Below are positions 35,391 through 51,234 of a stretch of DNA of 64,000 nucleotides, one piece after another; the stretch's first letter is position 1, and the number at the start of each line of letters is the position of its first letter. The notes beneath the pieces were generated by a model. The model saw nothing but the letters and a program-made list of their open reading frames with translations. It ran no database searches and was not told the DNA's origin. Location: positions 1-64,000 of the forward strand of contig CBEUCH010000013.1 in NCBI GenBank assembly GCA_965541585.1. The letters are read 5' to 3'. This DNA is from an uncultured bacterium. Its GTDB lineage: Bacteria > Zixibacteria > MSB-5A5 > UBA10806. A program made the position numbers and the translations under genes.

Positions 35391-37115
35391 ATGAACTCTC
35401 TCTTTCTTGGCGGCCTGGCTATAATTTTACTCTATCTCGGATATAGATTCTACGGAGCCTTTATTGAAAAAAGGCTCATCGGTCCCGAAGATAGTTTTCC
35501 CACTCCCGCTGTTACAGAAAACGATGGTGTTGACTACTCGCCCGCCAGGACCCCGATGCTTTTCGGGCACCATTTCTCCTCCATTGCCGGGGCGGGACCG
35601 ATCATAGGTCCTCTTATCGGGGTTACCTTTTTTGGCTGGTTGGTTTCTGCTCTCTGGATAGTCATAGGATCGATATTCATGGGAGCAGTGCATGATTATA
35701 CCTCCATGATGCTTTCGGTGCGCAACAAGGGTAAATCGATCGCGGAGATTGCCGGGATTTCTCTGGGGAATAGGGCCAAAATGGTCTTCTCGGTTTTTCT
35801 CTGGATAGCCTTAGTTCTGGTCGTGGCAGCTTTCGGCGATGCAACCGCTCAAACCCTGGTCAAAAAACCGGAGATCGTCATACCGACTTTTGGCTTGATC
35901 TTTATAGCCATCTTTTTTGGCCGCCTTGTCTACCGGATGGGCGTCTCGCTGATCCTCGGTACCATAATATCTCTCGGGCTTCTGGCGGCCCTGGTTTATC
36001 TTGGTGAGTTAGCCCCTATCTCTGTTCCGGGTATGGTTTTTGGAATGTCCGATGTCCGGTTCTGGTTCTGGATTTTAATGGTCTATGCTTTGATCGCCTC
36101 CGTCATTCCGGTATGGGTCCTTCTCCAGCCACGGGATTATATCTCCAGCTGGCTGCTTTATCTAGGCCTCGGACTGGGATTTCTCGGTTTGACAATCGCC
36201 CACCCGGATTTAAAGGCGCCCGCTATTGTGGCTTTTGATAGCCCGACGCAGGGGCCGCTATGGCCGATGCTGTTCGTTCTTATTGCATGCGGTGCCGTCA
36301 GCGGATTTCACTCCCTCGTGGCCAGCGGAACCACGGCCAAGCAACTTGCGCGTGAAGGACTCGGGCGAAAAATAGGTTACGGTTCAATGATCTTAGAAGC
36401 GGTTCTGGCAATTATGGTAGTCATGATTGCCGCCGCGGCCCTGAACTGGGATCCATCCGCCCGGAAGTCGGCTTTCGGTCTGCAATACCTGATGACTTCG
36501 GCCACTGCCGGTGGGGGAGGCGGTCCCATAGTCGCCTTCGCTACAGGTTTTGGCAAGGTGGTTAATATCTTGCCGGGGATCTCGCTTGCTGCAGGAATCT
36601 ATTTCGGGATGCTGATGCTGAACGCCTTCGTGATGACAACGCTCGATACAGCTACCAGGTTGGGGAGGTTTATTTTGACCGAAGCCGGCGGAGAAAAGTT
36701 TAAACTCCTGAATAACAGATGGCTGGCCACCATAATGACCGTTGCAGCGGCCGGGTTATTGGCATCGACAGGCGGTGTTAAGACTATCTGGCCGGTTTTT
36801 GGTGCCGCCAATCAACTCGTTGCAGCACTGGCGCTGGTAGTAGTATCATCATATCTGATCGGTGTAAAAAAGCCGAGGCTCTACACGGTTTTACCGGCAA
36901 TTTTCATGTTGGTAACCACAATCGGCGCTTTGATATTTAACATGACCGGCTTCTTCGCTATGGGCACCGCACGGGGCTATCTTCTTGGATGCGTTTCGGT
37001 TATACTCACCGCGTTAGCCCTTTATATTGCCTTTGAGGCCAGGGACGTTTTTCTGTTTCTGAAGCGAAAGAGAGAACCTATAGTGGCTCCACATCCGGCT
37101 TGGAGCCGAGAATAG
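35391..37115 (+). CDS. cstA: Carbon starvation protein A family transporter
   Basis: GHHFSSIAGAGPI, GAVHD, LLQPRDY, ACGAVSGFH, TTLDTATR, WPVFGAANQL. Confidence 0.93.
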   Translation: MNSLFLGGLAIILLYLGYRFYGAFIEKRLIGPEDSFPTPAVTENDGVDYSPARTPMLFGHHFSSIAGAGPIIGPLIGVTFFGWLVSALWIVIGSIFMGAVHDYTSMMLSVRNKGKSIAEIAGISLGNRAKMVFSVFLWIALVLVVAAFGDATAQTLVKKPEIVIPTFGLIFIAIFFGRLVYRMGVSLILGTIISLGLLAALVYLGELAPISVPGMVFGMSDVRFWFWILMVYALIASVIPVWVLLQPRDYISSWLLYLGLGLGFLGLTIAHPDLKAPAIVAFDSPTQGPLWPMLFVLIACGAVSGFHSLVASGTTAKQLAREGLGRKIGYGSMILEAVLAIMVVMIAAAALNWDPSARKSAFGLQYLMTSATAGGGGGPIVAFATGFGKVVNILPGISLAAGIYFGMLMLNAFVMTTLDTATRLGRFILTEAGGEKFKLLNNRWLATIMTVAAAGLLASTGGVKTIWPVFGAANQLVAALALVVVSSYLIGVKKPRLYTVLPAIFMLVTTIGALIFNMTGFFAMGTARGYLLGCVSVILTALALYIAFEARDVFLFLKRKREPIVAPHPAWSRE

Positions 37116-37330: not shown

Positions 37331-39055
37331 TTGGTTACTATGCTGGATAAAAGGATGGTGGGCGAAAACCCACAGGAGTCGACAAGAAAGATAAATATAG
37401 CCTCAGAACTCAAAAAATTCTCGGCTCCAAAAACCGAGTTCAAGATCAACGGCGGGGATGATTTTGCGCTGGGAAGAAATGACCTGCGGGCGTTGTACGA
37501 GGTTTCCCGGGCCGTGAACTCCACTCTCATATTGGATGAAATATTAAGCATCGTGATGCAGAAGTCGATAGAGCTACTCCAGGCGCAGAGAGGTTTTTTG
37601 ATGCTTCTGGATTCGGACGGGAATCTGCAGTTCAAAACGGCCTATAAGATCAACAAAAAAGATCTGGATGAAAGCGATCTTCAGATTCCATCCTCGATCG
37701 CACGGACGGTGCTTGAAACAGGGCAGTCGCTTTACACCTCCGACGCTTTGAAAGATGATCGTTTTTCGCATAAAAAATCCGTTCTGGAGATGAATATACG
37801 TTCGGCTATCTGCGTGCCTTTAAGGATCAAAGATCAAACCATAGGCGTCGTATATCTTGATAATTCAGCCAGAGCCAACATATTCTTAAAATCGGATTTG
37901 CATCTATTCGAGCTCTTTGCGGATCAAGCTTCCTTAGCCATACATAATGCCCAGCTTTATACAGAGCTTTTCGATCTCCAGCGATTTCAGGAAGCGACTC
38001 TTGATAAAACACCTGTGGGAATAATGGTCCTGGCCGAGAATGGGGAAGTTATCTCATATAATAATGCCTCCTTCGCCCTGTTGTATAAGGCCTCTCTCGT
38101 GCCGGACGATGGCAGCTATGATCTTCTGGGCAAAAACTTCCTGGAGATCTTACCATCCGCGGAACGGAAATTCTGGAAGGAGAACATAGCCAGATCGGCG
38201 GAGGTTACCGAGGAGATTCCTTCGCACAGGCAAAAGATCGGTTCGGATGATACCGTTTTCAGATATCGATTTTCGCCATTTCATCATGTGAGCGACGATC
38301 TGAACGGCAGGATTATAGTTATCGAGGACATCACGGAAAAAGTGATTCTGGAGCAATCCCTGCTATTATCTGAGAAGATGGCTGCCAAGGGGGAGATGGC
38401 GGCCACTATTGGGCATGAGCTAAACAATTATCTGACAACCATATCGACCAACGCCCAGCTTCTGCCGCGCATCTTAGAGAAAGGACAAATGGATAAGGTC
38501 CCGGCGAAGGTTGACAGCATCCTGGCCGGCATTGACAAAATGAAGCGTTTCACATCGGGCCTGATGGATTTCTCAGCCCTCGAGACCAGGAAGGCCTCGC
38601 ATGACATATCGGTTGTCTTAGATGACGTGATCTTTTTTGTGAAGCCGCTGAAGAAATTCAAAGCAATTGATGTCGCTCTTGATATAGCTCTTGATATTCC
38701 GAAGGTGATGATTGATATAGGGCAGATTCATCAGGTTATCTTTAACCTCTTGATGAATGGGGCCGATGCCATAGCGGACAGCGGAGTTACCGATGGGGCC
38801 ATTAGGATCACCGCCCGGTGCGAGGCAGAGTTTGCCACCGTGGTTATCTCCGATAACGGGCCGGGTATCCCGGATGATATTCTGTCAAACCTGTTTGAAC
38901 CTCATATAACATCAAAGACGTCCGGGCACGGATTGGGGCTTTCTATCAGCCTGAGAATTATTGAGAGCCACGGCGGCCAGCTTACGGCATCGAATAATCC
39001 AGATGGCGGTGCATCGTTTAAAATAAAGCTTCCATTGGGTAAGGTTGATGAATGA
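37331..39055 (+). CDS. Cytoplasmic GAF-PAS sensor histidine kinase
   Basis: GAF (RSAICVPL, GVVYLDN), PAS-like segment, HELNN H-box, DNGPGI, GHGLGL; no TM helix. Confidence 0.9.
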   Translation: MVTMLDKRMVGENPQESTRKINIASELKKFSAPKTEFKINGGDDFALGRNDLRALYEVSRAVNSTLILDEILSIVMQKSIELLQAQRGFLMLLDSDGNLQFKTAYKINKKDLDESDLQIPSSIARTVLETGQSLYTSDALKDDRFSHKKSVLEMNIRSAICVPLRIKDQTIGVVYLDNSARANIFLKSDLHLFELFADQASLAIHNAQLYTELFDLQRFQEATLDKTPVGIMVLAENGEVISYNNASFALLYKASLVPDDGSYDLLGKNFLEILPSAERKFWKENIARSAEVTEEIPSHRQKIGSDDTVFRYRFSPFHHVSDDLNGRIIVIEDITEKVILEQSLLLSEKMAAKGEMAATIGHELNNYLTTISTNAQLLPRILEKGQMDKVPAKVDSILAGIDKMKRFTSGLMDFSALETRKASHDISVVLDDVIFFVKPLKKFKAIDVALDIALDIPKVMIDIGQIHQVIFNLLMNGADAIADSGVTDGAIRITARCEAEFATVVISDNGPGIPDDILSNLFEPHITSKTSGHGLGLSISLRIIESHGGQLTASNNPDGGASFKIKLPLGKVDE

Positions 39056-42000
39056 TCGCCTTATAGCCGGGCGATATAGAATCGAAGAGCTTTTGGGCGA
39101 AGGCGGTTTAGCTCGTGTCTATCGTGCGACTGACATTCTCACCGGCAAGGCGGCAGCCCTCAAAGAAGCCCATCCCGATGATTCGTCAGCACGCGAAGCC
39201 ATAATACATGAATACAGCTTCGCGTCATCGCACCAGCACCCGACATTGGTTTTTCCCTATTCGTTGATCGACTGTTCCGACGGAACTCTGATTGTCATGC
39301 CCCTGGTTGAAGGAACCGATCTAAAATCATGGTCGAATTCAACCTCCCTCAGCCCGGATCCGGATCAGGGAAAATCTCGAATGGATGGAGTCATAGCATC
39401 GATACTCGAGTGCGCGGCATTTATACACTTTTCAGGTTATTTATATAATGATTTCAAGCCTGCAAATTTCATGATCACCGGCGACATAGTTTCGAATGCG
39501 GCTGATAATATAAGACCGGTTCTTCTGGATTATAACCTGCTGACTCCCAGAGGCGGAAACCAGTCGAGGCGCGGCACTCTCGAATATATCTCTCCGGAGG
39601 TATTGAAAGGCGACCCTCCCGGAGTACAATCCGACCTGTACTCAATTGGAGCCATGATTTATGAGTTTTTTTCAGACGCTCCGCCCCTTTCCTCAACCGG
39701 TGACTCCGAGCTAATCAGGCTCGTTACAGAAAAGGGCAGTATCGACTTCTCTCGCATCCCGCAGCGCTTCAAAGAGGGGATGGAAGCCCTTTTATCTCGT
39801 GATCCGGGCCGACGCCCGCAGGATGCGAAGGAGGCAGCGGGGATTCTGGGCCTCGATGAGCAGTTTCAGACTCTCTTCCACGTCCGGATTGGATACTATC
39901 TGTCAGCCGGAACGCCGCCCTTTGCCGCCGAATTGGAGAGTTGTTTTAAGGACTATCTTCGCAGCATGTCCGAAAAGATCTTCCTGATCCGCGGTTTAAG
40001 CTATGGCACGAGCGCATCGAATTATCTGGCATCGAGGTTTGCGATTGATGGATTTGAAATCTATCGTATCCACGCCGGGTATGACGATGATGCGTCCGCC
40101 GCGATTCTCCATGATCTCCTCCAGAGAATAGACACCGGCTTTCAGAAAAGAACTCTACTTCTGGTTGACAGACTTGAGGATTTAAATGATCAGAATGTAA
40201 GAAAGCTCAAGGTCATCGCCGGTTCTCGCGGCGATGTCCCCGTGGTCGCCGGAGCCGGGCGCTGGCATGATTTTGGCCTGCCGTATGTTTTGTTCGATCC
40301 CTTACGCAATCAAACCAGGCATAGCGCCACTACCGAGGCATTGAAAGCTTTCTTAAAGCAATCGGAATTAAATTTCGAATACGATCGCCTGAGCGAAGCT
40401 ACCGGGGGCGATCCGGAACTCATTTATTATCATCTAATTAGCGCTGCCAATGATGGCAGATTCGATCCGCTCTCCGGCAAGCAGGAATATGATCTTCGCG
40501 TAATCGATAAAGCCATACCGGGAGTGGTCGAAGCCACCGGGCGGATGTGCGATTCGTTGAGTGTAAGCGGGCAAACCGTAATGACTAAGCTCTCTGTGTG
40601 GGGCGACAGGATTCCGATGCTTCTCATGACAGGATTTGATGAAAGCGAGCAAAAAACCATAAACAGCCTGATGGAATCGGGTCATCTGGTTCGGGAGAAG
40701 GATTCTGTGGCTTTTCCCTCCGGTGATTCGAGAGATTTAATCTACTCTCGAACCTCCCCTGGTGAAAAAGAAACCCTTCACCGCTATTGGGCTGAGGCGA
40801 CTGAAAAACGGTTAAAGGACACAGACGAATACCTGGAGGCGGTAGCGTACCACTGGGGTCGCTCCGATGATATAAAAAGGGGATTCGAGGCAAATCGTCT
40901 GGCCGCCGCAGAGTATCTGAGAAAAGGAGAATTATCACGCGCCAAGGATATCGCCAAAACTCTCCTTTCCCTCTCGGAGAGAGGAGGTGGATCGAAATCC
41001 GCCGCCCTGGAGATCTATGCCGATATCGCTAAAGCCGAGGGAGATTATCAGGACGCTCGTGAAAAATATTTAAGAATTCTCTGGAATCTGCGGCTTGAGA
41101 GAGACAAGTGTCTGGAAGCCAAAACCTTAAAAGACCTGGGAGATCTTTATCGCTCGCTGAGGATATCCCGGAAGGCTCTGCTTTATACCAGAAAGGCATT
41201 GAGCTCATATACAGGGCTGTCGGACGAGCAAGGGATGGCCGATTGTCTAAACAACATGGGCCTGACCTACTGGGTAAATGAAGATTACAAGCAAGCCCTC
41301 GATTCTTTCAATTCCGCGCTTTCGGCAAACAAAAGGATGGGGAATTATCGCGAGCTTGCGAAAATCCAATCCAATATTGGTATTATCAAAGACATAACAG
41401 GAAAAACCGGGGATGTGACCAGCCATTTCTTAGATGCTCTGGACTGCGCCAGGCAGGCCGAAGATCCCAGACTTCAGGCCCTGGTTTCCAATAATCTCGG
41501 TTTCTTTTTGATCCGGCAGGGCGATTTCGAGACTGCACAAAGGCATCTCTTCGACGCCCTTGAGATATCGGAACGTATCGGTTTTACCGAGGAGATAATC
41601 AATTCCCTGACGAATCTAGGCCTTTGCCATCTTCGGCTTGGCGATCTGTTTAAGTCGGTGGAAAGCAACCAGAAGGCGCAGGAGTGGGCCAACTCATTTG
41701 GCAACAAACGGTTGGCGGCTGAAGCTGAGCTTCATCTCACTGAGGCCTGTATCCTGATGGGTAATTTTTCACTCGCCGAATCTGTCTTATCGTCAATCGA
41801 ATCCGATAAAGTATATTTGGAAGATAAAACGCTGAAATCTCAGGTCGATTTGCTCCGCTCCAGATGGCAGGTGAATTCGGGATATTATGAGAAAGCCCTA
41901 AGAACTGCGGGGGCCGTTTCCTCCGAAGCCGGAATTGCGGGCAATACGCGCTTGAGACTCGAGGCGGGATTGGTCGTCGCTGAAGCGCAGATGACCTCTC

Positions 42001-42524
42001 AGCCAAAAAGGGCGCTTTCGAATCTGGCGGTTCTGGCCGAAGAAGCACATAAATTGGGGCATGGCGATCTGGCAGAAGCAGCCGGATTGCTACTGGCAGG
42101 CATATATCTGCTATTAAAAGACTATTTCAACGCCGAGGGGTGGATTGAAAAATCCCTCTCTGGCAGGAAGCCGCCTAAGAGAGCTTATATCGAGGCCTCG
42201 ATTCTCTCCTCCGAAATCTCATATCTTAAAAACAGATATGACGATGCAATCGATAAACTAATTGAAATAGAGAGTACTGCGGCGGCCTCGGGATTCATCC
42301 CCTTGGCCCTCAAATCATCTGTTATCCTGGGGGAGATATTCACCTCCTGTCTGAAGCTATCAAGAGCAAAAAGGGCTTTTGGAAGAGCAGTGGAATACAG
42401 AGAGAAAATGTTATCTGCCTTCCCCGTAAACACTTCCACCGCACCTCTGCTTAAGCTCCCCTCCATGGTACGTCTTGAGGCAGGGCTGGCCGAGATAGAT
42501 GAAAAGGCATTTTTGAGGATTTGA
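39048..42524 (+). CDS. Ser/Thr protein kinase - degenerate NTPase - TPR protein
   Basis: LGEGGLARVY, ALK, NDFKPAN, DYN, GTLEYISPE, SDLYSIG. C-terminal TPRs (LNNMG, QSNIG, SNNLG, LTNLG). Overlaps the HK stop codon. Confidence 0.88.
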   Translation: MNDRLIAGRYRIEELLGEGGLARVYRATDILTGKAAALKEAHPDDSSAREAIIHEYSFASSHQHPTLVFPYSLIDCSDGTLIVMPLVEGTDLKSWSNSTSLSPDPDQGKSRMDGVIASILECAAFIHFSGYLYNDFKPANFMITGDIVSNAADNIRPVLLDYNLLTPRGGNQSRRGTLEYISPEVLKGDPPGVQSDLYSIGAMIYEFFSDAPPLSSTGDSELIRLVTEKGSIDFSRIPQRFKEGMEALLSRDPGRRPQDAKEAAGILGLDEQFQTLFHVRIGYYLSAGTPPFAAELESCFKDYLRSMSEKIFLIRGLSYGTSASNYLASRFAIDGFEIYRIHAGYDDDASAAILHDLLQRIDTGFQKRTLLLVDRLEDLNDQNVRKLKVIAGSRGDVPVVAGAGRWHDFGLPYVLFDPLRNQTRHSATTEALKAFLKQSELNFEYDRLSEATGGDPELIYYHLISAANDGRFDPLSGKQEYDLRVIDKAIPGVVEATGRMCDSLSVSGQTVMTKLSVWGDRIPMLLMTGFDESEQKTINSLMESGHLVREKDSVAFPSGDSRDLIYSRTSPGEKETLHRYWAEATEKRLKDTDEYLEAVAYHWGRSDDIKRGFEANRLAAAEYLRKGELSRAKDIAKTLLSLSERGGGSKSAALEIYADIAKAEGDYQDAREKYLRILWNLRLERDKCLEAKTLKDLGDLYRSLRISRKALLYTRKALSSYTGLSDEQGMADCLNNMGLTYWVNEDYKQALDSFNSALSANKRMGNYRELAKIQSNIGIIKDITGKTGDVTSHFLDALDCARQAEDPRLQALVSNNLGFFLIRQGDFETAQRHLFDALEISERIGFTEEIINSLTNLGLCHLRLGDLFKSVESNQKAQEWANSFGNKRLAAEAELHLTEACILMGNFSLAESVLSSIESDKVYLEDKTLKSQVDLLRSRWQVNSGYYEKALRTAGAVSSEAGIAGNTRLRLEAGLVVAEAQMTSQPKRALSNLAVLAEEAHKLGHGDLAEAAGLLLAGIYLLLKDYFNAEGWIEKSLSGRKPPKRAYIEASILSSEISYLKNRYDDAIDKLIEIESTAAASGFIPLALKSSVILGEIFTSCLKLSRAKRAFGRAVEYREKMLSAFPVNTSTAPLLKLPSMVRLEAGLAEIDEKAFLRI

Positions 42525-42533
42525 GGATCGCCC

Positions 42534-42561
42534 AAAAAAAAGGGCCGCATTTGAGCGGCCC
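42534..42561 (-). terminator. Intrinsic terminator for the small peptide gene
   Basis: GGGCCGC-6nt-GCGGCCC followed by T8 on the minus strand. Confidence 0.8.
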
Positions 42562-42583
42562 GAGTTTTCCGGTAGAGTGGGTA

Positions 42584-42661
42584 TTAGGATCCTGCTCCAG
42601 TATAACCGCCTGGGGCGATCCTTTCCTCTAGTTCCTCAACCTCAAGGATGAAATCTACCAT
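42584..42661 (-). CDS. 25-aa peptide MVDFILEVEELEERIAPGGYTGAGS (putative signalling/RiPP-like precursor)
   Basis: Manual translation. SD GAAGGGGGTGA just upstream, downstream terminator, upstream promoter. Confidence 0.8.
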   Translation of the reverse strand: MVDFILEVEELEERIAPGGYTGAGS

Positions 42662-42762
42662 CGCTTCACCCCCTTCCGGAGTTGTTGCTGCATTGAGGAT
42701 TTCACAAGGTCCTCGAGGAGGATTCTTTGGACATCCCCTCCTCGGACCACCATCTGTTAAAA

Positions 42763-42791
42763 AATGAAACGATTATCGATAACCGTGTCAA
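42763..42791 (-). promoter_or_regulatory. Putative promoter of the peptide gene with palindromic operator
   Basis: TTGACA (42791-42786), then 17 nt, then a weak -10 TTCATT. ACGATTATCGATAACCGT (42769-42786) is a near-perfect palindrome. Confidence 0.55.
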
Positions 42792-43383
42792 GGGAAAAAT
42801 GCAATTTTTTTCAGATAATGTGAAATCCTGTATACATGGCCAACATATGAAATTTGTTGGTATTTATAGTGTTATCGCGTAATATCCTGCAAGATCCCAG
42901 GGCAGAGATTTTGATCGCTTCGCGCGAATTAGCTTAGTCTGACCCCAGGAACCCGGGCAAATCCAGGAGGCCGCGATTGTGGGCCAGGTCCTTTGGGGGT
43001 ATTTACAACTGATGGCATCCGGGAAAGGAGCGATGCCATTCCCGTGAAAACGAAGATCCACTTTCGCATGGAAAGATTCCGCTTTGAGTGCCCTCTGGTT
43101 TCACGAGACAATCCAAAAAGTCGGGCAATGATTCAACTGGCTATGTGATTCCGGAAATGGTGAGGTAAGCTGATAAGGGCTTGCCTTCAGGCGTTGTAGG
43201 AATTATTTGGGCATCTGGCCGGGTCGATCGTTGGCTGGTTGTCCCGGGAGTTGGAATTACCTCATTTCGATGGGTGAAAGGCCTGATCTTCGCCACTCCA
43301 TGCACTCAAGGCAAACTCCCGGGAGAGACTCTAAGCACGTTTTGACAATCTCCAGTAGTTATAATGTTTTTTTAAAAAAGGAC

Positions 43384-43411
43384 TTGACAGGTTTGCGAGT
43401 GTAGGTATATT
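43384..43411 (+). promoter_or_regulatory. Sigma70-like promoter of the cohesin/dockerin cluster
   Basis: T7A5 tract, then TTGACA-N16-TATATT. Confidence 0.5.
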
Positions 43412-43737
43412 TACCAGTGTCTGATGTAGCCCCGATTTTACTTCGGTGCAATGTGTTCTTCGCTTTACTGTTCAAATGAGGCTTCGATTCTGTGAAGAAG
43501 CGAGCTTAAATGAATGAGACCGCACTTATTGGAGAAGCTATCGACTGACAGTGCTATCGGTTGGGTCATGCCGCGAATCTGTATGGCATGATATCGTTGC
43601 TCTCTTGAAAAACTGAAAATCGTTCATTTGGCTCTAAAAGCCGGTGATGCGGAACGCAAAATCGATTGCTTCCCAACTCAATCGACGCTCAGCCGGCAGA
43701 ATTAGCTTGACAGAAAAGCGAAAAAAGGAAGCCGGGT

Positions 43738-44484
43738 ATGTTAAAAGTCTTAGTTATCGCTGTTGTGTCTACATTAGTGATGTTTTTCGGAATTTCCGCC
43801 GCTCAGAGTGATCCGGTCAGCATCACCATCGGTGAATCTTGCGATTCAATCCCCAGGCTGAGTATCCCTATTTACATGAACAATCCGGATTCCGTGGGAT
43901 CATTTACGATAAGGATAATCCTTAGTGACTTTAATCTGCCTGATCCGATGTGGCTGGTTTTCGATCCTGACGATCCCGATGCCGCCGATACGATAGGCAG
44001 CCGGATCAACTACTGGCCTTTCTTCACCTTCTATATGGATGAGCCGGATACGATTGTAGTGAACGCTGCCCGAATCGGCTATCCTGAAGAGGCTCAATCC
44101 CTGCCAGCGGGCAATGGTTTGATATTCACTATTCATCCTATCATAACGGAAATATCTAATACCTGCCAGCGTCTGCGGTTTGGCGATGGTTGCTTCGTTT
44201 ACGACGAGAGTCAATATAATTATTATAATCTGAACTATATCAGGGGAGATGCCTGTTCCGGTTGCGATCCGTCCTGGCTACATGGCGACGTGGATCGCTC
44301 CGGGAGCATAGATTTGTCCGACGTAATCGGCATGATCAGCGCCTATAGAGGCGGCTCCTTTTGTGACTCGTGTGCCTGCACGGGGGACGCTGACGGCAGC
44401 GGCATCCCGTTTGAGTTGGCCGACGTGGTGGCCATCATAGGCCATTACAGGACCGGGGAACCCGTGATGCTACCATGTGAATGA
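43738..44484 (+). CDS. Secreted cohesin-like + dockerin protein (no CTD)
   Basis: Signal peptide, IPIYMNNPDSV...GNGLIF, then GDVDRSGSIDLSDV...GDADGSG...LADV. Confidence 0.75.
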   Translation: MLKVLVIAVVSTLVMFFGISAAQSDPVSITIGESCDSIPRLSIPIYMNNPDSVGSFTIRIILSDFNLPDPMWLVFDPDDPDAADTIGSRINYWPFFTFYMDEPDTIVVNAARIGYPEEAQSLPAGNGLIFTIHPIITEISNTCQRLRFGDGCFVYDESQYNYYNLNYIRGDACSGCDPSWLHGDVDRSGSIDLSDVIGMISAYRGGSFCDSCACTGDADGSGIPFELADVVAIIGHYRTGEPVMLPCE

Positions 44485-44675
44485 AAAGGGATTAAATAGA
44501 AAAAGTTTGTTCTTCAGATAAACCTGGTTTCCTTGTGAAGGAGGTGAGTGCCAAGAGAGAAAAAAACGTTTGTAAAGAGGGGAGAATTCGGTTTGTCCTG
44601 GAAATGGATTTCCAGGCTTACGCAAACAAGGTGTTAACAAGAAAAACGCCTGTGCATGATTTTAAGGAGTAAAAC

Positions 44676-46943
44676 ATGAAAAAATTGTTGCTCTTGGCTT
44701 TAGTTACAATTTTCACTTTCAGCCTAGCATCTGCTCAGACCAATAAGGCCGTATTCGGGCCGCTGGTCGGTGATGGCGCTGGTCAGATTATTGCCGTCAA
44801 CGGTCAGTCCATCGATCTCGAGGTGTGGGTTCGCACCGATCCGGGCAACCCTGCCGTGATCGTCGGCACGGCTCATGGCCTGATGACCGAGGATCAGTAT
44901 ATCGCGGAACGTAACGACGGCACCGCGGAGCCTGAATGGGCCATGCCCAATTGGGAGCAGTTCTTCATTGATCCCCCGAATCCCCCGTCCCCCCCAGGAC
45001 ATCCTCTTGGCTATTATACGGATGCCGATGGGGGCGATTTCCCGTATGACCCAGGCTTTAAGGGCGAGGTGCAAGGCGCCCTTTACACGGTGTTTAATCC
45101 GCCGGTTGGCGATCCCCTCGACACTCAGGGTGAATGGGTGAAATATATGACCTGGCATGTGGTCATGAACGTCGACATCGAAGTCGAGCAGGAGGTCTGT
45201 CCGTTCAGCGCGGCCTGGTATCCTCACAGTGGTGAGGGGACCAAATGGGCATTTGAAGGTGGCGGCGGCGTTACTCCGGAGCAGGATTATTCCTGCGTCT
45301 GGATCAGTGCCAACACCGACCCGGTGCTTACGGTTTGCCCGCAAGGCGGGTGCGCTGATGGCGGCATGGAGCTCTGTTTCGATATCGCCGGTGAGGACCT
45401 CGACGAGCTTGATGATCTGCAGATCACGTTGATCTCGGGCCCCGGCGAATATACCGCTGATGTTTCAGGTCCCGGTGGCGCAGCTTCCGGAACCTGGTGC
45501 TGGGATGATCCTCAAGCCGGTGAATACGTGGTTGTTCTCGAGTTGAACGACAATGCCGGCGCCGCCGTTCTCTGCGAATTCCCGCTTTCGGTCGGCGATA
45601 TCACTTTTGAGATTGACTGCGTAGCCAGTTTCCCCGGCGGCGTGGTTATCGTTCCGGTTCGCCTGCACACCTGTGCCTTCGAGACCGGTGGTATCGAGTT
45701 TCTGGGTCGCTGGGATCCGACAGCTCTCGAGCTTTTGGACGTTCAGCCGCAATCCAGGATCGATTTCGGTGAGGAATACTTCTACTGGAATGATACCGAT
45801 CCCTGCGAAGAGTGCCCTCCAGGCGGCGCCGTCAGGGTGACATGGATCTCCGATATCAACAACGGAGTTCCGCATGCTCCGGCCCCGCCGGGCAGCGCTT
45901 CGGTATTCAACCTAATCTTCCAGGTCGATCCCGCCCTGCCATGGGGTATGGAAATCCCAGTCGAGTTCCATAATCTGCATTATTCCGACAACACCATCTC
46001 TGATCAGTCGGGTTACATCTGGTGGACTCCTGAGCAGATCGATGGCTGCGTTGTGGTTGAAGACGCCGAATCGTTCAAAGGCGATCCCAACATGAACGGT
46101 ACCCCCTACGAAATCGGTGATGCAGTGATCGTAGCTCTTCGTCTGATCCATTGCAGCAGTGGCATTGACTGCCCTATCTGGTCGGAAGGCCCAGGCGGGC
46201 CAGGCGACGATGCCCTGCAGGAAGCTGCGGCTGACCTGAATAACAACGGGTTCGCCGATATTGCTGACCTGCTTAGGTTCATCAATATTATCAACGATAT
46301 CATTCCTCCCCCGAAAGTGGAGCCGAGCTCTACTGTAGCTCAGGTCAGCATGCCTGATGTTATCGGTGATAATATGGAAGTAACGCTTAAGGCCGGTGTC
46401 GATGTTGGCGGCGTTCTGCTGAGCATCGAGCACCCGGGTGTTGAACTCGACACTCCTGTTGCCAACAACGGCATGGAGCTTCTCTATCATGACGCCGATG
46501 GTGTTATGAATGTGGTAGTCTTCTCCAAGACCGCCGAAGTTCTGGCAGCCGGCAACTCGTCGTTGTTCACCATTCCGGTGCTGTCGAACGATGGCGGCTC
46601 CATGAGCTTTGCCGAGGTTTCCTCTTCCGACTCTTATGGTCGTCTGATGGAGACTGTGGCTTCTCTGGAGGCTCCTCTGCCGACTACCTTTGCCGTCGAG
46701 CAAAACTACCCGAATCCGTTCAACGCCAAGACCCAGATCGGCATAGCTCTGCCTGAGGCCAGTGATGTTGTTGTAGATATCTACAGCATCACCGGTCAGA
46801 TGGTGGAGTCGGTCTCCGGTTATTTCGAGGCTGGAAACCATTCCATCACATGGGATGCTTCCGACGTCTCTTCCGGCGTTTACTTCTACAAAATAACGGC
46901 GGGTGACTTTAGCCAAACGATGAAGATGACCTTGCTGAAGTAA
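44676..46943 (+). CDS. Secreted Ig/cohesin/dockerin protein with T9SS-type CTD
   Basis: PGGVVIVPV...DNTISD cohesin-like unit, GDPNMNG...ADLNNNGFADIADL dockerin, QNYPNPFN...KMTLLK. Confidence 0.85.
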   Translation: MKKLLLLALVTIFTFSLASAQTNKAVFGPLVGDGAGQIIAVNGQSIDLEVWVRTDPGNPAVIVGTAHGLMTEDQYIAERNDGTAEPEWAMPNWEQFFIDPPNPPSPPGHPLGYYTDADGGDFPYDPGFKGEVQGALYTVFNPPVGDPLDTQGEWVKYMTWHVVMNVDIEVEQEVCPFSAAWYPHSGEGTKWAFEGGGGVTPEQDYSCVWISANTDPVLTVCPQGGCADGGMELCFDIAGEDLDELDDLQITLISGPGEYTADVSGPGGAASGTWCWDDPQAGEYVVVLELNDNAGAAVLCEFPLSVGDITFEIDCVASFPGGVVIVPVRLHTCAFETGGIEFLGRWDPTALELLDVQPQSRIDFGEEYFYWNDTDPCEECPPGGAVRVTWISDINNGVPHAPAPPGSASVFNLIFQVDPALPWGMEIPVEFHNLHYSDNTISDQSGYIWWTPEQIDGCVVVEDAESFKGDPNMNGTPYEIGDAVIVALRLIHCSSGIDCPIWSEGPGGPGDDALQEAAADLNNNGFADIADLLRFINIINDIIPPPKVEPSSTVAQVSMPDVIGDNMEVTLKAGVDVGGVLLSIEHPGVELDTPVANNGMELLYHDADGVMNVVVFSKTAEVLAAGNSSLFTIPVLSNDGGSMSFAEVSSSDSYGRLMETVASLEAPLPTTFAVEQNYPNPFNAKTQIGIALPEASDVVVDIYSITGQMVESVSGYFEAGNHSITWDASDVSSGVYFYKITAGDFSQTMKMTLLK

Positions 46944-46970
46944 GAAGTTCGGCAAGTCGCTTCGAGCTAA

Positions 46971-47003
46971 CAGGATAAGAGAGGGTCTCCCTCTCTTATC
47001 CTG
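46971..47003. terminator. Perfect 15-bp stem-loop (terminator or 3' stabiliser)
   Basis: CAGGATAAGAGAGGG-TCT-CCCTCTCTTATCCTG; no U-tract on the + strand. Confidence 0.6.
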
Positions 47004-47315
47004 AATAAAATGAACATCTTACGAGAGGGAGGGGGTGATTTGAAATAGGCGTGTGCAAATAATTTGTTTTTTGTTGCAGGAGTGGTAATTTGTTTTGGGT
47101 TTTTCTTGTATTTTCGATGTTTTTTACTGGTTCGATTATTTTATCCCACAAAAGAAGAAATATCTATGAACTTGAAGAGAAGCTATTTAGCGTGTGGAAT
47201 AATGTTAACCTGATGATGGTGAAAAAGTTATGACATCAGAGGCACGTATTTTGCTAAGTTATACTATAAAAGGAAGCGAGATTTACGCTTAAACCGATTA
47301 TCTCGGGGGATTAAC

Positions 47316-48158
47316 GTGAGATCTTTTGTCTTGATTGCAGTTCTGAGTTTATTTCTGGGAGCGACAAATGCATTTCCCCAGTCTCCGGACAGTCTGATCG
47401 TAACGAATGCTGTGGCGCCTCCCGGGGATACCGCAATCGTCTCGGTCATGTTGCATAATACTCAGTTTTCGGTCGGCGGTTTTGCGATGAGATTCGTCTT
47501 GCTCGATTCTGTGAATGCCTCGTTTCAACGGGTCGAGCGTGGGGCCGACACGCAGGATTTCGATCATTTCAATATCCAGCAGTCTGATGGGACATGCAAG
47601 GTCGTGGGGATCGTTGATATGCCAGGCGGCAATAATGCTCCGCCTCTACCAATCGGAATTAATGAACTTGCTAAGGTGTTTATATTTATCGAGGATACCG
47701 CCCCGTGGGGCATGACGGATTCGATACTGTTTATGGATGACACGCTTCCCCCGGAACGTGATAATTCCATTTCTGACAGCACCGGTTATATAAACGAAGT
47801 ACCGACGTTGATCGGCGGAGAGATTCTTGTTGACGTCGCCATCGGCGTCAGTGAGATTCCCACCGGCATTCCAGATAAGATGGAGTTATATCAAAACTAC
47901 CCCAACCCTTTCAATTCTGAGACAATGATTCGGTTCGGACTGTCGGCGGAAATAGATGAGGTTTCTCTTTCTGTCTATGACATTGTTGGCCGGAGGGTAG
48001 GCAGGTATTACTGGGGCGGCCTTCCGCCGGGTCAGCACGAGGTAATATGGAGCGGCTATGACGATAATGACAGACCTCTTGCGTCCGGCGTGTATTTTTA
48101 CAGGCTGGAGGCCGGGTCGTTGCCGGCTATTGTGAAGAGGATGACCCTGCTGAAATAG
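47316..48158 (+). CDS. Secreted cohesin-like domain + T9SS-type CTD protein
   Basis: PGDTAIVSV...VGGF...DNSISDSTG, QNYPNPFN...RMTLLK. Confidence 0.82.
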   Translation: MRSFVLIAVLSLFLGATNAFPQSPDSLIVTNAVAPPGDTAIVSVMLHNTQFSVGGFAMRFVLLDSVNASFQRVERGADTQDFDHFNIQQSDGTCKVVGIVDMPGGNNAPPLPIGINELAKVFIFIEDTAPWGMTDSILFMDDTLPPERDNSISDSTGYINEVPTLIGGEILVDVAIGVSEIPTGIPDKMELYQNYPNPFNSETMIRFGLSAEIDEVSLSVYDIVGRRVGRYYWGGLPPGQHEVIWSGYDDNDRPLASGVYFYRLEAGSLPAIVKRMTLLK

Positions 48159-48260
48159 GCAGATGGTATGAATTGTCTTATGCTTTTGGTACCCAATACT
48201 GGAAATGGAGACCGTCAATCCGGACGGTCGTATGACCGTAATGGTCATGGAGAAAATGAT

Positions 48261-49091
48261 TTGAGCAAAACGCTATCCTTTGTATTTATTTTTGTGATGT
48301 TGATTTGCTCCGGTTCTGTATGGGGGCAGACATTCTCCGATGACGATACATTGAGTATTCCATCGGGAATCGGTGAGCCGGGTGATGTGATTCTGGTGCC
48401 GATAGATCTGGTAAATACGTTTATGGTTGGAGGCTTTGCCGTCAGGATCTCTTACGATAGCAGCGCTTTTGAACCCACTACAGTAGACACCACAGAGCGG
48501 TCGGCCAGCCTTGAATTACACGGCGCAGATTTTCAAGTCCCCGGGATCATCCGATATTGGGCAACCTCCATGCGGCCTCTTGAGAACGGGATGCCGGCAG
48601 GATCGGGCCCCGTAGCGGTGCTATCCCTGGCGATCAAGTATACTGCGCAGGACGGCTATTATGACCTTGCTTATACCGATGAAGATTCAACGTCGTATGA
48701 TAACCAATTATCTGATTCCCTTGGACTTACACTGGTCATCCCGATTCAGGTCGGAGGCCGGATCGTAGTCGGAGATCCAACCGGAATTGAGGATGACAAA
48801 CCGCTTCCGGAATCTTTTGCGTTGTCGCAAAATTTTCCCAATCCGTTCAATCAGCAGACGCGAATCTCCTTCAATCTGGCGAGTTCAGGCGAAGTCGGAC
48901 TTGAGATATTCGATATTCTCGGAAGAAAAATAGCGACTTTATTCTCAGGTCGGGCTGATGAAGGAGAAACCGAAGTTAGCTGGGACGGGCGGTCTGCGTG
49001 GGGAGGGGATGTGTCTTCGGGCGTTTATTATTATCGATTGCGGAACGCGGGGGGGGAATCGATAGTCAGGAAAATGACCTTGTTAAAGTAG
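48261..49091 (+). CDS. Secreted cohesin-like domain + T9SS-type CTD protein
   Basis: Start reassigned to TTG after GGAG. PGDVILVPI...GSGPVA...DNQLSDS, then CTD. Confidence 0.82.
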   Translation: MSKTLSFVFIFVMLICSGSVWGQTFSDDDTLSIPSGIGEPGDVILVPIDLVNTFMVGGFAVRISYDSSAFEPTTVDTTERSASLELHGADFQVPGIIRYWATSMRPLENGMPAGSGPVAVLSLAIKYTAQDGYYDLAYTDEDSTSYDNQLSDSLGLTLVIPIQVGGRIVVGDPTGIEDDKPLPESFALSQNFPNPFNQQTRISFNLASSGEVGLEIFDILGRKIATLFSGRADEGETEVSWDGRSAWGGDVSSGVYYYRLRNAGGESIVRKMTLLK

Positions 49092-49104
49092 TGGGGCCGA
49101 TGAT

Positions 49105-51234
49105 ATGAAAAAGCTAATCTTGCCTCTTGTCATAGCGATCTTTCTGGCAGCATCATGGTCTGATGCAGAGGCGCAGGAATATTCTGATGCCGATACCATG
49201 GCCATAATTGATGGCTATGGCAATCCCGGGGATACGGTCGGCGTCATAATGCACATGGCTAACCATACTATCGACGTTGGGGGGTATCTTCACAGAATCG
49301 TTTACGACGAGACGCTCCTGGAGCCCCTGATGGTCACCGACACCATAATGAGTAGCGAATGTCTGGATAGGGGCTGTCAACTCGGAGCATCAGCCGATGC
49401 TCTTGAGCCGGGCGTCGTCAGGATTCTGGCGTATAGCCAATTTGGCGACTATATTCCAATGGGCAGCGGTCCTGTATTGCAGCTTAATTTTATAGTCAAA
49501 CCGACAGCGCCGCCCGGGACCATTACTATTCTGCAATTCCAGGATCTAATCCCGCCGCAGGATAATAACTGGTCTGATTCACTGGGGGAGCGTCTCCTGG
49601 TGCCTCAGCTGTTACCCGGCAATTTCTCCATTCTGGGGGGAGGCTTAAACTCGCCGCCGGTCATCAACTTCGTCGGCGATCAGGAGGTGGCCGAGGGGCA
49701 GTTGCTGGAGTTTTCCGTGACCGCTCATGATCCGGACTCAGATCCGATTACATTGACCGCCCAGAACCTCCCCGATAATGGTTCGTTCCCCGTAGTCCAG
49801 GGTGATTCGCTGGTTACCGGTACCTTTTCTTTTCGCCCTGATTTCGACCAGGGGCCCGATACGTTTGTTGTAACTTTCAGAGCAACAGACAATTCCAACA
49901 ATGTCACCGAACGTCCGGTTCAGATTGTCGTTCTCGATCAGCCGGATGATTTCTTATCCATCAGCACCGACCAGGGAGGTATTCCGGGGGCGACGGCGAG
50001 GCCGGTGGATATCATCCTGTTCAATTCCATTCCGGTATTTGGCGCCCAGTTCGAGATTCTGTATGATCCTTTTCAGATCCAGATCCCGGAGGTCTATTCG
50101 ACGGAGAGAGCCTATGATATGTGGTTCTCTTACAACGAACCGGATCCCGGGAGAATTATAATCCTGATATTCTCGGTTGGCCTGGATTCGATCTCATCGG
50201 GAGGCGGGCCTCTGGCACAGCTTATCGTCGACGCCGATCCCTTTGCAACCTTCGGCCCGACAGAACTGATCCTTCAAGAGGCCATTGAGGTTATCGACTC
50301 TACTGGAACATCGAAGCCACTCATTACGGAAGATGGATTTTTCACGATCGACCAATTCGGCGATTCCAATCTCGATGGTATTGTCAATGTTGGAGACTGC
50401 ATAACCATAGTAGCGTATCTGATCGGGCGGGGCACCTTGAGCGAAAGGCAGCATGATGCCGCCGACATAGACAGCACCGGCCGAGTGGATATAGGCGATC
50501 TTCAGCAATTGATTAACATCATATTGGAAATAGGTATTCCACCTCTGTCTTATCCGCAGGATTTGCCTGTAATCGTAGAATTGTTGAAGGAAGATATTGG
50601 CCGCCAAGGAGATAAGCTAACCGTTCCGCTCTGGGCCGATATTACAGGCGAGGCCTCGGCCGTGCAGTTCGAACTGACTTTCGATACCGATAAGCTCGGC
50701 GAAATAGAGATCGTCAAGGGCGATATGGTCTCTGATATGACGCTTGATTATACGGTCGCCGGCGGCAGCATTAAAGGACTAGTATACCATCTGGGTGGTA
50801 ACAACTTCGGACCCGCCACAGGACGGCTTGTAGAATTTAAGTTCGACGCCCTGACCGGCGATTTCGATCCGAGCAGCGATATAAACCTTGCCGATTTCCA
50901 GGTAGTCAACCCGGCCGCCGACTTTATGCCGGTGGAAATTAAAGGACGATTGCCGGAAATTTTCAGGCTCGCTCAAAATTACCCGAATCCATTCAATGCG
51001 GGCACGAACATCAGCTTCAGTTTACCGTTATCCGGATATGTAGAGCTTTCGGTTTACGATCTCCTGGGACGAAGAGTAACAATTCTTCTTGATAGCTTCC
51101 TGCCGGCCGGAAATCATCTTGTGACCTGGAACGGTCGTTCCGGTAATGGAGAATCGATGGCCACGGGCATTTACTTCTATCGCCTGGCGGCCGAGGGATT
51201 TGACGAAACAAAAAAGATGTTGTTGGTGAAGTAG
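49105..51234 (+). CDS. Secreted cohesin-Ig-cohesin-dockerin-cohesin protein with T9SS-type CTD
   Basis: PGDTV.., NSPPVI..AEG..DPDSD Ig unit, GDSNLDGIVNVGD...ADIDSTGRVDIGDL, CTD. Confidence 0.85.
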   Translation: MKKLILPLVIAIFLAASWSDAEAQEYSDADTMAIIDGYGNPGDTVGVIMHMANHTIDVGGYLHRIVYDETLLEPLMVTDTIMSSECLDRGCQLGASADALEPGVVRILAYSQFGDYIPMGSGPVLQLNFIVKPTAPPGTITILQFQDLIPPQDNNWSDSLGERLLVPQLLPGNFSILGGGLNSPPVINFVGDQEVAEGQLLEFSVTAHDPDSDPITLTAQNLPDNGSFPVVQGDSLVTGTFSFRPDFDQGPDTFVVTFRATDNSNNVTERPVQIVVLDQPDDFLSISTDQGGIPGATARPVDIILFNSIPVFGAQFEILYDPFQIQIPEVYSTERAYDMWFSYNEPDPGRIIILIFSVGLDSISSGGGPLAQLIVDADPFATFGPTELILQEAIEVIDSTGTSKPLITEDGFFTIDQFGDSNLDGIVNVGDCITIVAYLIGRGTLSERQHDAADIDSTGRVDIGDLQQLINIILEIGIPPLSYPQDLPVIVELLKEDIGRQGDKLTVPLWADITGEASAVQFELTFDTDKLGEIEIVKGDMVSDMTLDYTVAGGSIKGLVYHLGGNNFGPATGRLVEFKFDALTGDFDPSSDINLADFQVVNPAADFMPVEIKGRLPEIFRLAQNYPNPFNAGTNISFSLPLSGYVELSVYDLLGRRVTILLDSFLPAGNHLVTWNGRSGNGESMATGIYFYRLAAEGFDETKKMLLVK

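Follow-up and report, generated by a model that had tools for sequence, protein, structure and literature searches.

The window, that is, the whole 64,000-nucleotide stretch of DNA analysed here, raises the question whether a minus-strand reading frame of only 25 residues is a gene and, if so, whether its product acts as a signal for the Ser/Thr kinase-TPR protein encoded tail-to-tail with it. The preliminary description of the locus had proposed both, together with processing of the peptide after Ala-Pro and relay of the signal to a histidine kinase (HK). The reading frame was found at 42661–42584 exactly as claimed, and we are practically certain that it is a real gene, the expression of which is predicted. 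Its features and those of its neighbours are collected in Table 1.

Table 1. Features of the peptide locus and of the adjoining kinase genes (positions in the window)
Feature	Position	Strand	Basis
GAF-PAS-HisKA-HATPase histidine kinase	37331..39055	+	domain search
GAF domain of the histidine kinase, predicted input from the Ser/Thr kinase	~37532–37942	+	decay after kinase loss
Ser/Thr kinase with degenerate STAND-like middle and TPR superhelix, 1159 aa	39045..42524	+	domain search, model
TPR repeats 726–870, predicted peptide groove	41220..41654	+	Asn ladder N736/737/777/816/817/857
Codon 773, predicted specificity residue	41361..41363	+	Lys here; Ser with terminal-Gln cores
Intrinsic terminator, hairpin 42542–42561 and T8	42534..42561	−	terminator scan, fold statistics
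Precursor peptide gene, 25 aa	42584..42661	−	MVDFILEVEELEERIAPGGYTGAGS; conservation in relatives
Core octapeptide GGYTGAGS, predicted signal	42587..42610	−	core length, covariation with TPR residue 773
Leader, residues 1–17, predicted RRE ligand with predicted cut after Pro17	42611..42661	−	
Shine-Dalgarno sequence GAAGGGGGTGA	42666..42676	−	sequence
5′ stem-loop, able to form, statistically unremarkable	42708..42748	−	fold compared to shuffles
Weak −10 candidate TTCATT, 3/6 match, spacing 17 nt	42763..42768	−	sequence
−35 box TTGACA of the peptide gene	42786..42791	−	sequence; kept in near relatives

The peptide gene carries the signals of a small transcription unit. The strong Shine-Dalgarno sequence described before is present at 42676–42666, and an SD-plus-ATG score of at least 7 of 9 is reached by 95 of 102 peptide homologues. 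As proposed, the unit is closed by a hairpin (42561–42542) followed by T8; at a fold z of −4.0 none of 200 shuffles was as good, and a stable downstream hairpin (fold z < −2) occurs in 81 of 104 peptide loci. This terminator folds on both strands and is also weakly usable from the plus strand. The promoter claim stood with respect to the −35 box, which is kept in 16/16 peptide loci of the two nearest families (f1 and f2); TTGAC[AT] is found at most 200 nt upstream in 60 of 103 peptide loci compared to 12% of shuffles. The −10 box is weak, and since it matches three of six positions only, the promoter scan called no minus-strand promoter for the peptide gene. Just 5′ of the −35 box a TGCATTT box (window 42792–42805, minus strand) is seen in nine of 16 near relatives. 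Taken with the weakness of the −10 box, it suggests a possible activator site or feedback control of the peptide gene. The TTGC box cannot be read as a sigma-54 element, as the −24 GG is missing, and a palindrome in the promoter spacer was dropped as an element because it is not conserved in relatives. The upstream stem-loop of the preliminary description can form but is not significant against shuffles, with z of −1.85 for the hand-picked stretch 42748–42708, −0.58 for the whole 5′ region and values between +0.9 and −2.3 in 16 relatives. No Rfam match was obtained within 42000–44000, and hence no known riboswitch or sRNA lies there.

In the 3.5-Mb genome the peptide motif occurs in a single copy. 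Queried with the peptide only, 29 of 41 relatives gave matches, and the peptides of two further relatives, located beside kinases, were recovered by pattern. A profile of 31 sequences detects the peptide in 232 of 285 Zixibacteria genomes, including one chance match inside a long frame (G083). The search for related small ORFs suggested earlier thereby revealed a conserved peptide beside the kinase-TPR gene in most loci. The peptide genes of two congeners show three and one synonymous codon differences and no amino-acid changes, and at the fixed leader residues all synonymous codons are in use. When 1.84 billion representatives were searched with a profile, 106 small proteins were returned. 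For the window's own peptide neither Pfam nor NCBIfam gave a match; its best feature score in the protein atlas, 0.81, is a lead only.

Comparison of 102 distinct peptides, with homologues about 19–35 aa long, yielded the leader consensus L-x-[IV]-E-x-L-E-x-[KR]-[IV]-A-P. Two Glu, the Leu and the Pro were preset by the pattern used for collecting, which missed two diverged leaders. The core following Ala-Pro comprises eight residues in 60 of the 102 peptides, with Gly at +2 in 71, Ser at +4 in 70, Gly at +6 in 73, Gly at +7 in 83 and Gln at +8 in 54. This comparative evidence backs the predicted division into leader and core after AP. Of the pattern that was to be checked, conserved leaders with varying tails, the conserved leader was found; the tail does not vary freely: Gly, Ser and Gln dominate throughout the phylum, and cores are nearly uniform over much of it. 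Such low variation counts against a kin-specific signal. The 106 small proteins include multi-cassette precursors (P0131, P0144, P0160, P0204, P0207, P0211, P0216 and P0221), in which the same leader recurs and each core is followed by an NHNETL motif; a literature search for such precursors found no paper.

How could the core be released and exported? The preliminary description had noted that the window contains no maturase, and indeed none is linked to the peptide here; the candidate for processing and export is now an unlinked fusion protein. Immediately upstream of the peptide gene, many families carry a same-strand gene of ~770 codons (46 of 97 loci, six loci being too short to tell), whose product combines an M50 protease with a HlyD-type membrane-fusion domain. 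Three strands followed by three helices (β3-α3), the layout of an RRE, are predicted by the model at its N-terminus, and a MacA/EmrA-like domain at its C-terminus. The fusion of the window's genome is encoded apart from the peptide on another contig (G000:C16:74956-77235) and keeps the motifs HELSH (HExxH) and NPLLKLDG (NPxLKLDG). On the daptide intramembrane peptidase model NF041824 the fusion scores 195–233 bits, with a cut-off of 300. The missing processing route is probably this RRE/site-2-protease/membrane-fusion protein.

The distribution of peptide and protease points in the same direction. The fusion was detected in 239 of the 285 genomes of the phylum: 226 hold both peptide and protease, 40 neither, 13 the protease only and six the peptide only; of the 13, two turned out to carry a diverged peptide. 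Under independence 8.6 genomes with neither would be expected, a figure to be read with the kinship, and thus the non-independence, of the genomes in mind. In G063, G095 and G147 the peptide travels with the protease, away from the kinase, and in G004 and G107 peptide and Asn ladder are kept while the protease is undetectable. From these sequence patterns we hold with high confidence that the peptide is a substrate of the protease fusion.

The same pairing extends beyond the phylum. From 80 fusion loci 15 were left out as Zixibacteria-type (13 so labelled, two labelled Ignavibacteria). Among the remaining 65, a small ORF encoding the same leader was detected at 23, in most cases immediately upstream; one of these 23 loci looks Zixibacteria-type despite its label. 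Fusion and leader (L303–L378) occur in Verrucomicrobiota, Gemmatimonadota, Acidobacteriota, Planctomycetota, Rokubacteria and others. The cores there are longer, more varied, rich in Gly, Asn and Pro and often present in two to three copies; a kinase match was found at nine of the 65 loci and a match to the window's TPR at three. In a Terriglobia locus (L323) peptide and protease come after a kinase-TPR frame no shorter than 1689 codons.

The genome of the window encodes five TolC-family proteins and one Opp-type binding protein, and no ATPase was found linked to the exporter fusion. The PqqD Pfam model gave zero matches genome-wide; it missed the protease's own RRE too and is therefore silent on other RREs. 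A published account of M50-HlyD-RRE fusions was not found, and the supplements of the daptide preprint may list MFP-fused RRE peptidases. As regards the start of the fusion gene in this genome (L079:12939-12960; G000:C16, ~74940), no in-frame ATG, GTG or TTG follows the Shine-Dalgarno sequence. A conserved Ile codon (ATC, ATT or ATA) stands at this place in most f1 and some f2 loci (L079, L206–L211, L089, L213, L215), suggesting a non-canonical start with low translation.

The second partner is the kinase-TPR protein, the residues of which are numbered from the TTG at 39045 (an ATG follows at 39048). The tail-to-tail arrangement was confirmed, with stops ~60 nt apart in the window. It is found in 86 of 97 loci, with the peptide absent from this place in eight and three undecidable, and the median gap amounts to 63 nt (97 loci). 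In a domain search the TPR_12 domain reached 82.8 bits. Lys40, Glu56, Asp136, Lys138, Asn141 and Asp162 are invariant in 72/72 collected orthologues (970–1307 aa, filtered at ≥900 aa), which predicts an active non-RD Ser/Thr kinase. At the Walker A position the window's kinase reads GLSYGTSA; GxxGxGKS/T occurs only in families f8, f12, f14 and f19. The structural model (pLDDT 91) matches the STAND-TPR protein PDB 6mfv (Foldseek E 1.5e-11) and the peptide-bound TPR domain of LGN, PDB 4wng (Z 25.8, rmsd 4.0, 316 aligned). The ladder Asn are also part of the generic TPR consensus. For the TPR region of G039 with its precursor, complex prediction gave a score of 0.02 compared to a mark of 0.32, a value that weighs on neither side. 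As a phylum-wide query the window's kinase matched 57 of 285 genomes; being insensitive outside this order, it was excluded from the counts. In G204 (L130; C1:1193870-1196026) the kinase-TPR gene is in two pieces ~480 kb apart, of which the C-terminal one is still beside the peptide; a rearrangement or a mis-assembly is suggested.

Evidence for contact between core and TPR groove was obtained from residue 773. It precedes N777 by four residues within one helix and hence lies on the same face. Ser is found at 773 in 34/34 kinases whose cores read GGQ at positions +6 to +8, compared to 3 of 28 others, in a column that was chosen from the data before the held-out test. Six nested switches away from Gln each formed a tip of its own among the Ser/Gln kinases when a quick tree was computed with the tested columns left out; residue 773 had changed in all six, compared to at most two of six for 50 other equally conserved columns. 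The held-out set comprised 86 loci, 79 with a kinase match and 73 scorable. By the preset rule “Gln at +8”, Ser773 was found with 37/37 Gln cores and 23/36 others. Nineteen of these 23 are register-shifted S-x-x-x-Q cores, shorter or longer; after register correction, a post hoc hand count made once the held-out rows were visible, Ser773 accompanies 56/56 Gln cores and 4/17 others. Two of the four true exceptions are the nested switches G116 and G190, where 773 is unchanged; it has changed in the further new switches g58 and G177. The six-residue core of g58 is accompanied by N736K and N737D. Cores from the order of the window have Ser or Leu as their last residue, and residue 773 is Lys in 16/17, which would suit the free C-terminal carboxylate of the core. 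It is very likely from this covariation that the core contacts the TPR. The earlier proposal that the TPR protein senses the peptide gains comparative support both from the covariation and from the decay of the TPR described below.

Since adjacency alone could be neutral, natural experiments were sought. Four genomes of genus g4 (90–96% complete) have kept the HK and the kinase and lack the peptide as well as the unlinked protease. Their kinases retain the catalytic residues, while repeats 726–870 contain a deletion of 10–14 aa and show 25–29% identity to the window's kinase, compared to 48–87% in seven peptide-bearing family members. Only 0–2 of the six ladder Asn remain in g4; all six are present in 54 of 62 peptide bearers and none of these has fewer than four. 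As a counter-example, G086 and G087 cleanly lack peptide and protease and keep all six. The converse loss is found in genus g54, where a kinase orthologue is absent in 4/4 searched genomes (two of them single-contig) and the protease is kept. The peptide gene occurs here in tandem, with four copies in G109 (L189:12542-13656) and seven in G111 (L188:12609-14348), and the cores are of a new type, S-R-[YWF]-G. Because the protease is kept and the peptide multiplied after kinase loss, the presumed export product has a value of its own; the arrays are possibly a repurposed or diversifying peptide family. In g4, g9 and g99 the protease is lost too although it is unlinked in their relatives; where the genes adjoin, joint loss can be one deletion.

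The histidine kinase gene overlaps the ATG of the kinase by 8 nt with its stop, so that the translational coupling noted earlier finds its counterpart in this gene overlap. Of the genomes with neither peptide nor protease, 31 were queried with a family-f9 kinase, a query too distant for five f2/f4 genomes. The kinase was found in 5/21 f9 genomes, three of the five ending at contig edges, and in 0/5 f16 genomes, while the HK mostly persists. Among 16 HKs from kinase-less loci, which span six lineages in a quick HK tree, six have no GAF domain. A further seven keep 0.46–0.75 of 72 conserved GAF sites and the remaining three still 0.85–0.86 (G206–208, kinase lost); in 56 bearers the median is 0.95 and the minimum 0.79. 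The catalytic part keeps 0.74–0.93, so there is some general drift too. In f9 and f16 the HK of the kinase-less loci stands opposite a chloride-channel gene, and losses there can thus be single deletions. The GAF decay after kinase loss makes it likely that the kinase works on the HK, in support of the relay put forward in the preliminary description; conserved Ser/Thr-rich segments of the GAF domain (59–65 and 120–122) are candidate phosphosites. Together, three natural experiments, namely the covariation of residue 773, the TPR decay in g4 and the GAF decay after kinase loss, suggest a chain from the peptide via the TPR kinase to the HK.

Other genes lie close by. A CstA-family transporter gene (35391–37115, plus strand) is located just upstream of the HK. 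It is present in the peptide-less g4 and absent from other family members, and is therefore probably unrelated; as an importer it was rejected since its position is not conserved. In many families the HK is preceded by an Omp85-family gene and a gene of 210–230 aa (L051–L058, L081, L121–L122 and others), with an NtrC-like regulator and a further HK often before them. The Omp85 gene was likewise rejected as an importer, since it is not a constant neighbour and its orthologue is on contig C4 here. On the other side lies a run of secreted proteins (43738–51234, plus strand), in which visual inspection of the translations indicated cohesin/dockerin-like repeats and T9SS-type tails. It has its own promoter-like site (43384–43411), and in this order the first gene of the run stands as a conserved neighbour next to the peptide.

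From these data a circuit can be proposed in which the cytoplasmic kinase-TPR protein senses an exported octapeptide (GGYTGAGS in this genome) and relays the signal to the HK; on the sequence evidence we consider it rather probable. The 25-aa precursor would be made from its own small transcription unit. Its acidic leader would bind the N-terminal RRE of the membrane-bound RRE-M50-MFP fusion encoded elsewhere, and, by analogy to the daptide system and in view of the co-occurrence, the fusion would cut after Ala-Pro. The membrane-fusion domain and a TolC might then pass the octapeptide outward. After re-entry into a cell, the core would occupy the Asn-lined TPR groove with its C-terminal end presumably near 736/737 and 773. 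Binding would switch the Ser/Thr kinase, which, as the co-decay implies, may act on the GAF domain of the co-translated HK, and the HK would signal onward to a response regulator. That the signal passes between cells appears somewhat more plausible than that it does not. No co-occurring importer was found for the uptake step, with one Opp-type binding protein in the genome.

All covariation and co-decay evidence would fit equally well with an internal export checkpoint, in which precursor or core binds the TPR in the producing cell and the protease-exporter serves as a sink. The kinase would then report envelope or TolC function in the manner of FlgM or ExsE, which are known examples of export reporters. 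The lack of a co-occurring importer, the near uniformity of the cores and the retention of peptide and receptor without protease in G004 and G107 speak for such a checkpoint. Against it speak genus g54, where the peptide is multiplied and diversified and the protease kept after kinase loss, and the longer, varied cores of other phyla, mostly without a kinase-TPR nearby (TPR match 3/65). Moreover, the intact receptors of G086 and G087 would be useless to an internal reporter once the peptide gene is gone. We regard the checkpoint as unlikely.

The covariation would also fit docking of a substrate. The TPR would then hold the core while the kinase phosphorylates Ser+4, and the fusion would release and export a minimal phospho-RiPP. 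The frequent Ser at +4 (70/102 cores), the invariant catalytic residues (72/72 kinases) and the RiPP-type leader and RRE agree with this. On the other hand, two of the 102 cores lack Ser and Thr altogether, and in the window's order the residue at +4 varies between Thr, Ile, Ser and Ala and is in much of the order neither Ser nor Thr, so that the phosphorylation suggested earlier is unlikely. In addition, the g4 kinase stays catalytically intact after peptide loss, it is the GAF domain of the HK that decays when the kinase is lost, and the kinase is predicted to bind the core side while the RRE belongs to the protease; a phosphopeptide product is accordingly quite improbable. Peptide and kinase could finally be old neighbours without functional relation, a secreted peptide (e.g. 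antimicrobial or surface-active) next to a kinase/HK pair, held together only by the short intergenic gap (median 63 nt) and the shared terminator that folds on both strands. Some genomes keep one of the two modules and lack its neighbour, and leader and protease occur without kinase-TPR in other phyla. Residue-level covariation in separate lineages, TPR-specific decay in g4 and the change of the core consensus where the kinase is lost leave very little room for this explanation.

There is about an even chance that the proposed circuit represents a peptide quorum-sensing class native to diderms, with an unmodified octapeptide that a RiPP-style leader directs to a single-chain exporter with no linked ATPase, and with a cytoplasmic Ser/Thr kinase receptor that reads the peptide through a one-residue specificity switch and acts on a GAF domain to feed two-component signalling. 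TPR-receptor peptide signalling has been described for Gram-positives, and a phylum-wide diderm version would widen the known range of bacterial communication. It would provide a ligand for one of the many orphan kinase-STAND-TPR proteins, and leader and exporter would constitute a general, so far unrecognised route of peptide secretion in Verrucomicrobiota, Gemmatimonadota, Acidobacteriota, Planctomycetota and other phyla. The leader can also serve to find unannotated peptides in several phyla without cultured members. With a synthetic 8-mer, a soluble receptor domain, one predicted specificity residue and a single-gene protease-exporter, the system is testable without culturing Zixibacteria.

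In the literature covered, which included few subscription journals, no description of the motif or of TPR kinases or RiPPs from Zixibacteria was found. The signal of LEPR-XLL giant proteins was considered as a source of the leader motif. This origin was dropped; the accessible part of the corresponding source (10.64898/2026.03.19.712371) is silent on M50 fusions. An acidic leader weakly related to that of the peptide occurs in the ammosamide/lymphostin (pearlin) family NF033737, where 3/31 members match with a best E of 0.0019; one homologue reaches 14.9 bits on this model at a cut-off of 30 and the window's peptide gives no match. A PEARL-type ligase was not recognised in the peptide loci, and a PF04738-like ligase had no match in the genome of the window, nor did control genomes give any. 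Among STAND NTPases an intact Walker A P-loop is typical, which the window's kinase does not have. Similarity to the STAND-TPR protein 6mfv and to the TPRs of LGN/Pins in complex with extended peptides (4wng, 4a1s) concerns the fold, as helical-repeat matches show fold and not function.

The closest parallel for leader and protease is the daptide system. The accessible text of its description reports RREs fused to site-2 proteases and a leader ELExMEAP with Pro at −1 that is removed by MpaP (bioRxiv 10.1101/2023.03.08.531785). The leader of MpaA/DapA shares the frame E-L-E-x-x-x-A-P with ELEERIAP here, and the RRE is N-terminal to M50 in the peptidase MpaP/DapP as in our fusion. In contrast to daptides, the fusion remains below the 300-bit cut-off of NF041824, lies on another contig and carries a membrane-fusion domain; the host is a diderm, and kinase-TPR and HK are linked to the peptide. 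The core is a Gly-rich octapeptide, and 0/102 cores end in the Thr that daptides invariably bear at the C-terminus. The window's peptide does not match NF041808, and no DapB/C/D/M tailoring enzymes were recognised among the locus-map neighbours, many ORFs of which are unlabelled.

For sensing, the RRNPP systems (Rap-Phr, PlcR-PapR, Rgg-SHP, AimR-AimP; for general background see the accessible part of PMC10617681) offer the nearest comparison. Five criteria are given for them in the part of PMC10075063 available to us, including a propeptide of 10–100 aa and a TPR receptor of 250–500 aa; secretion is described there as proceeding via SEC (or PptAB) with a basic, then hydrophobic signal sequence. 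The mature peptide is moreover to be taken up again and bound by the receptor, a step to which the covariation of core and TPR relates here. Similar to these systems, a small propeptide gene, here of 25 aa, adjoins a cytoplasmic TPR protein (86/97 loci), the mature peptide is predicted to be short and C-terminal, and receptor and peptide covary. In contrast, a basic N-region or a hydrophobic stretch was not seen by eye in the 102 homologues. The leader is instead acidic and of RRE type, with a candidate protease-exporter at its side, and the receptor has 1159 aa including a Ser/Thr kinase. The output is predicted to run via a GAF histidine kinase, and the host is not Gram-positive. Measured against the available part of that source, the predicted system works like an RRNPP pair, yet is no member of the group, as it departs in two of the five criteria, the SEC-type signal and the length of the receptor.
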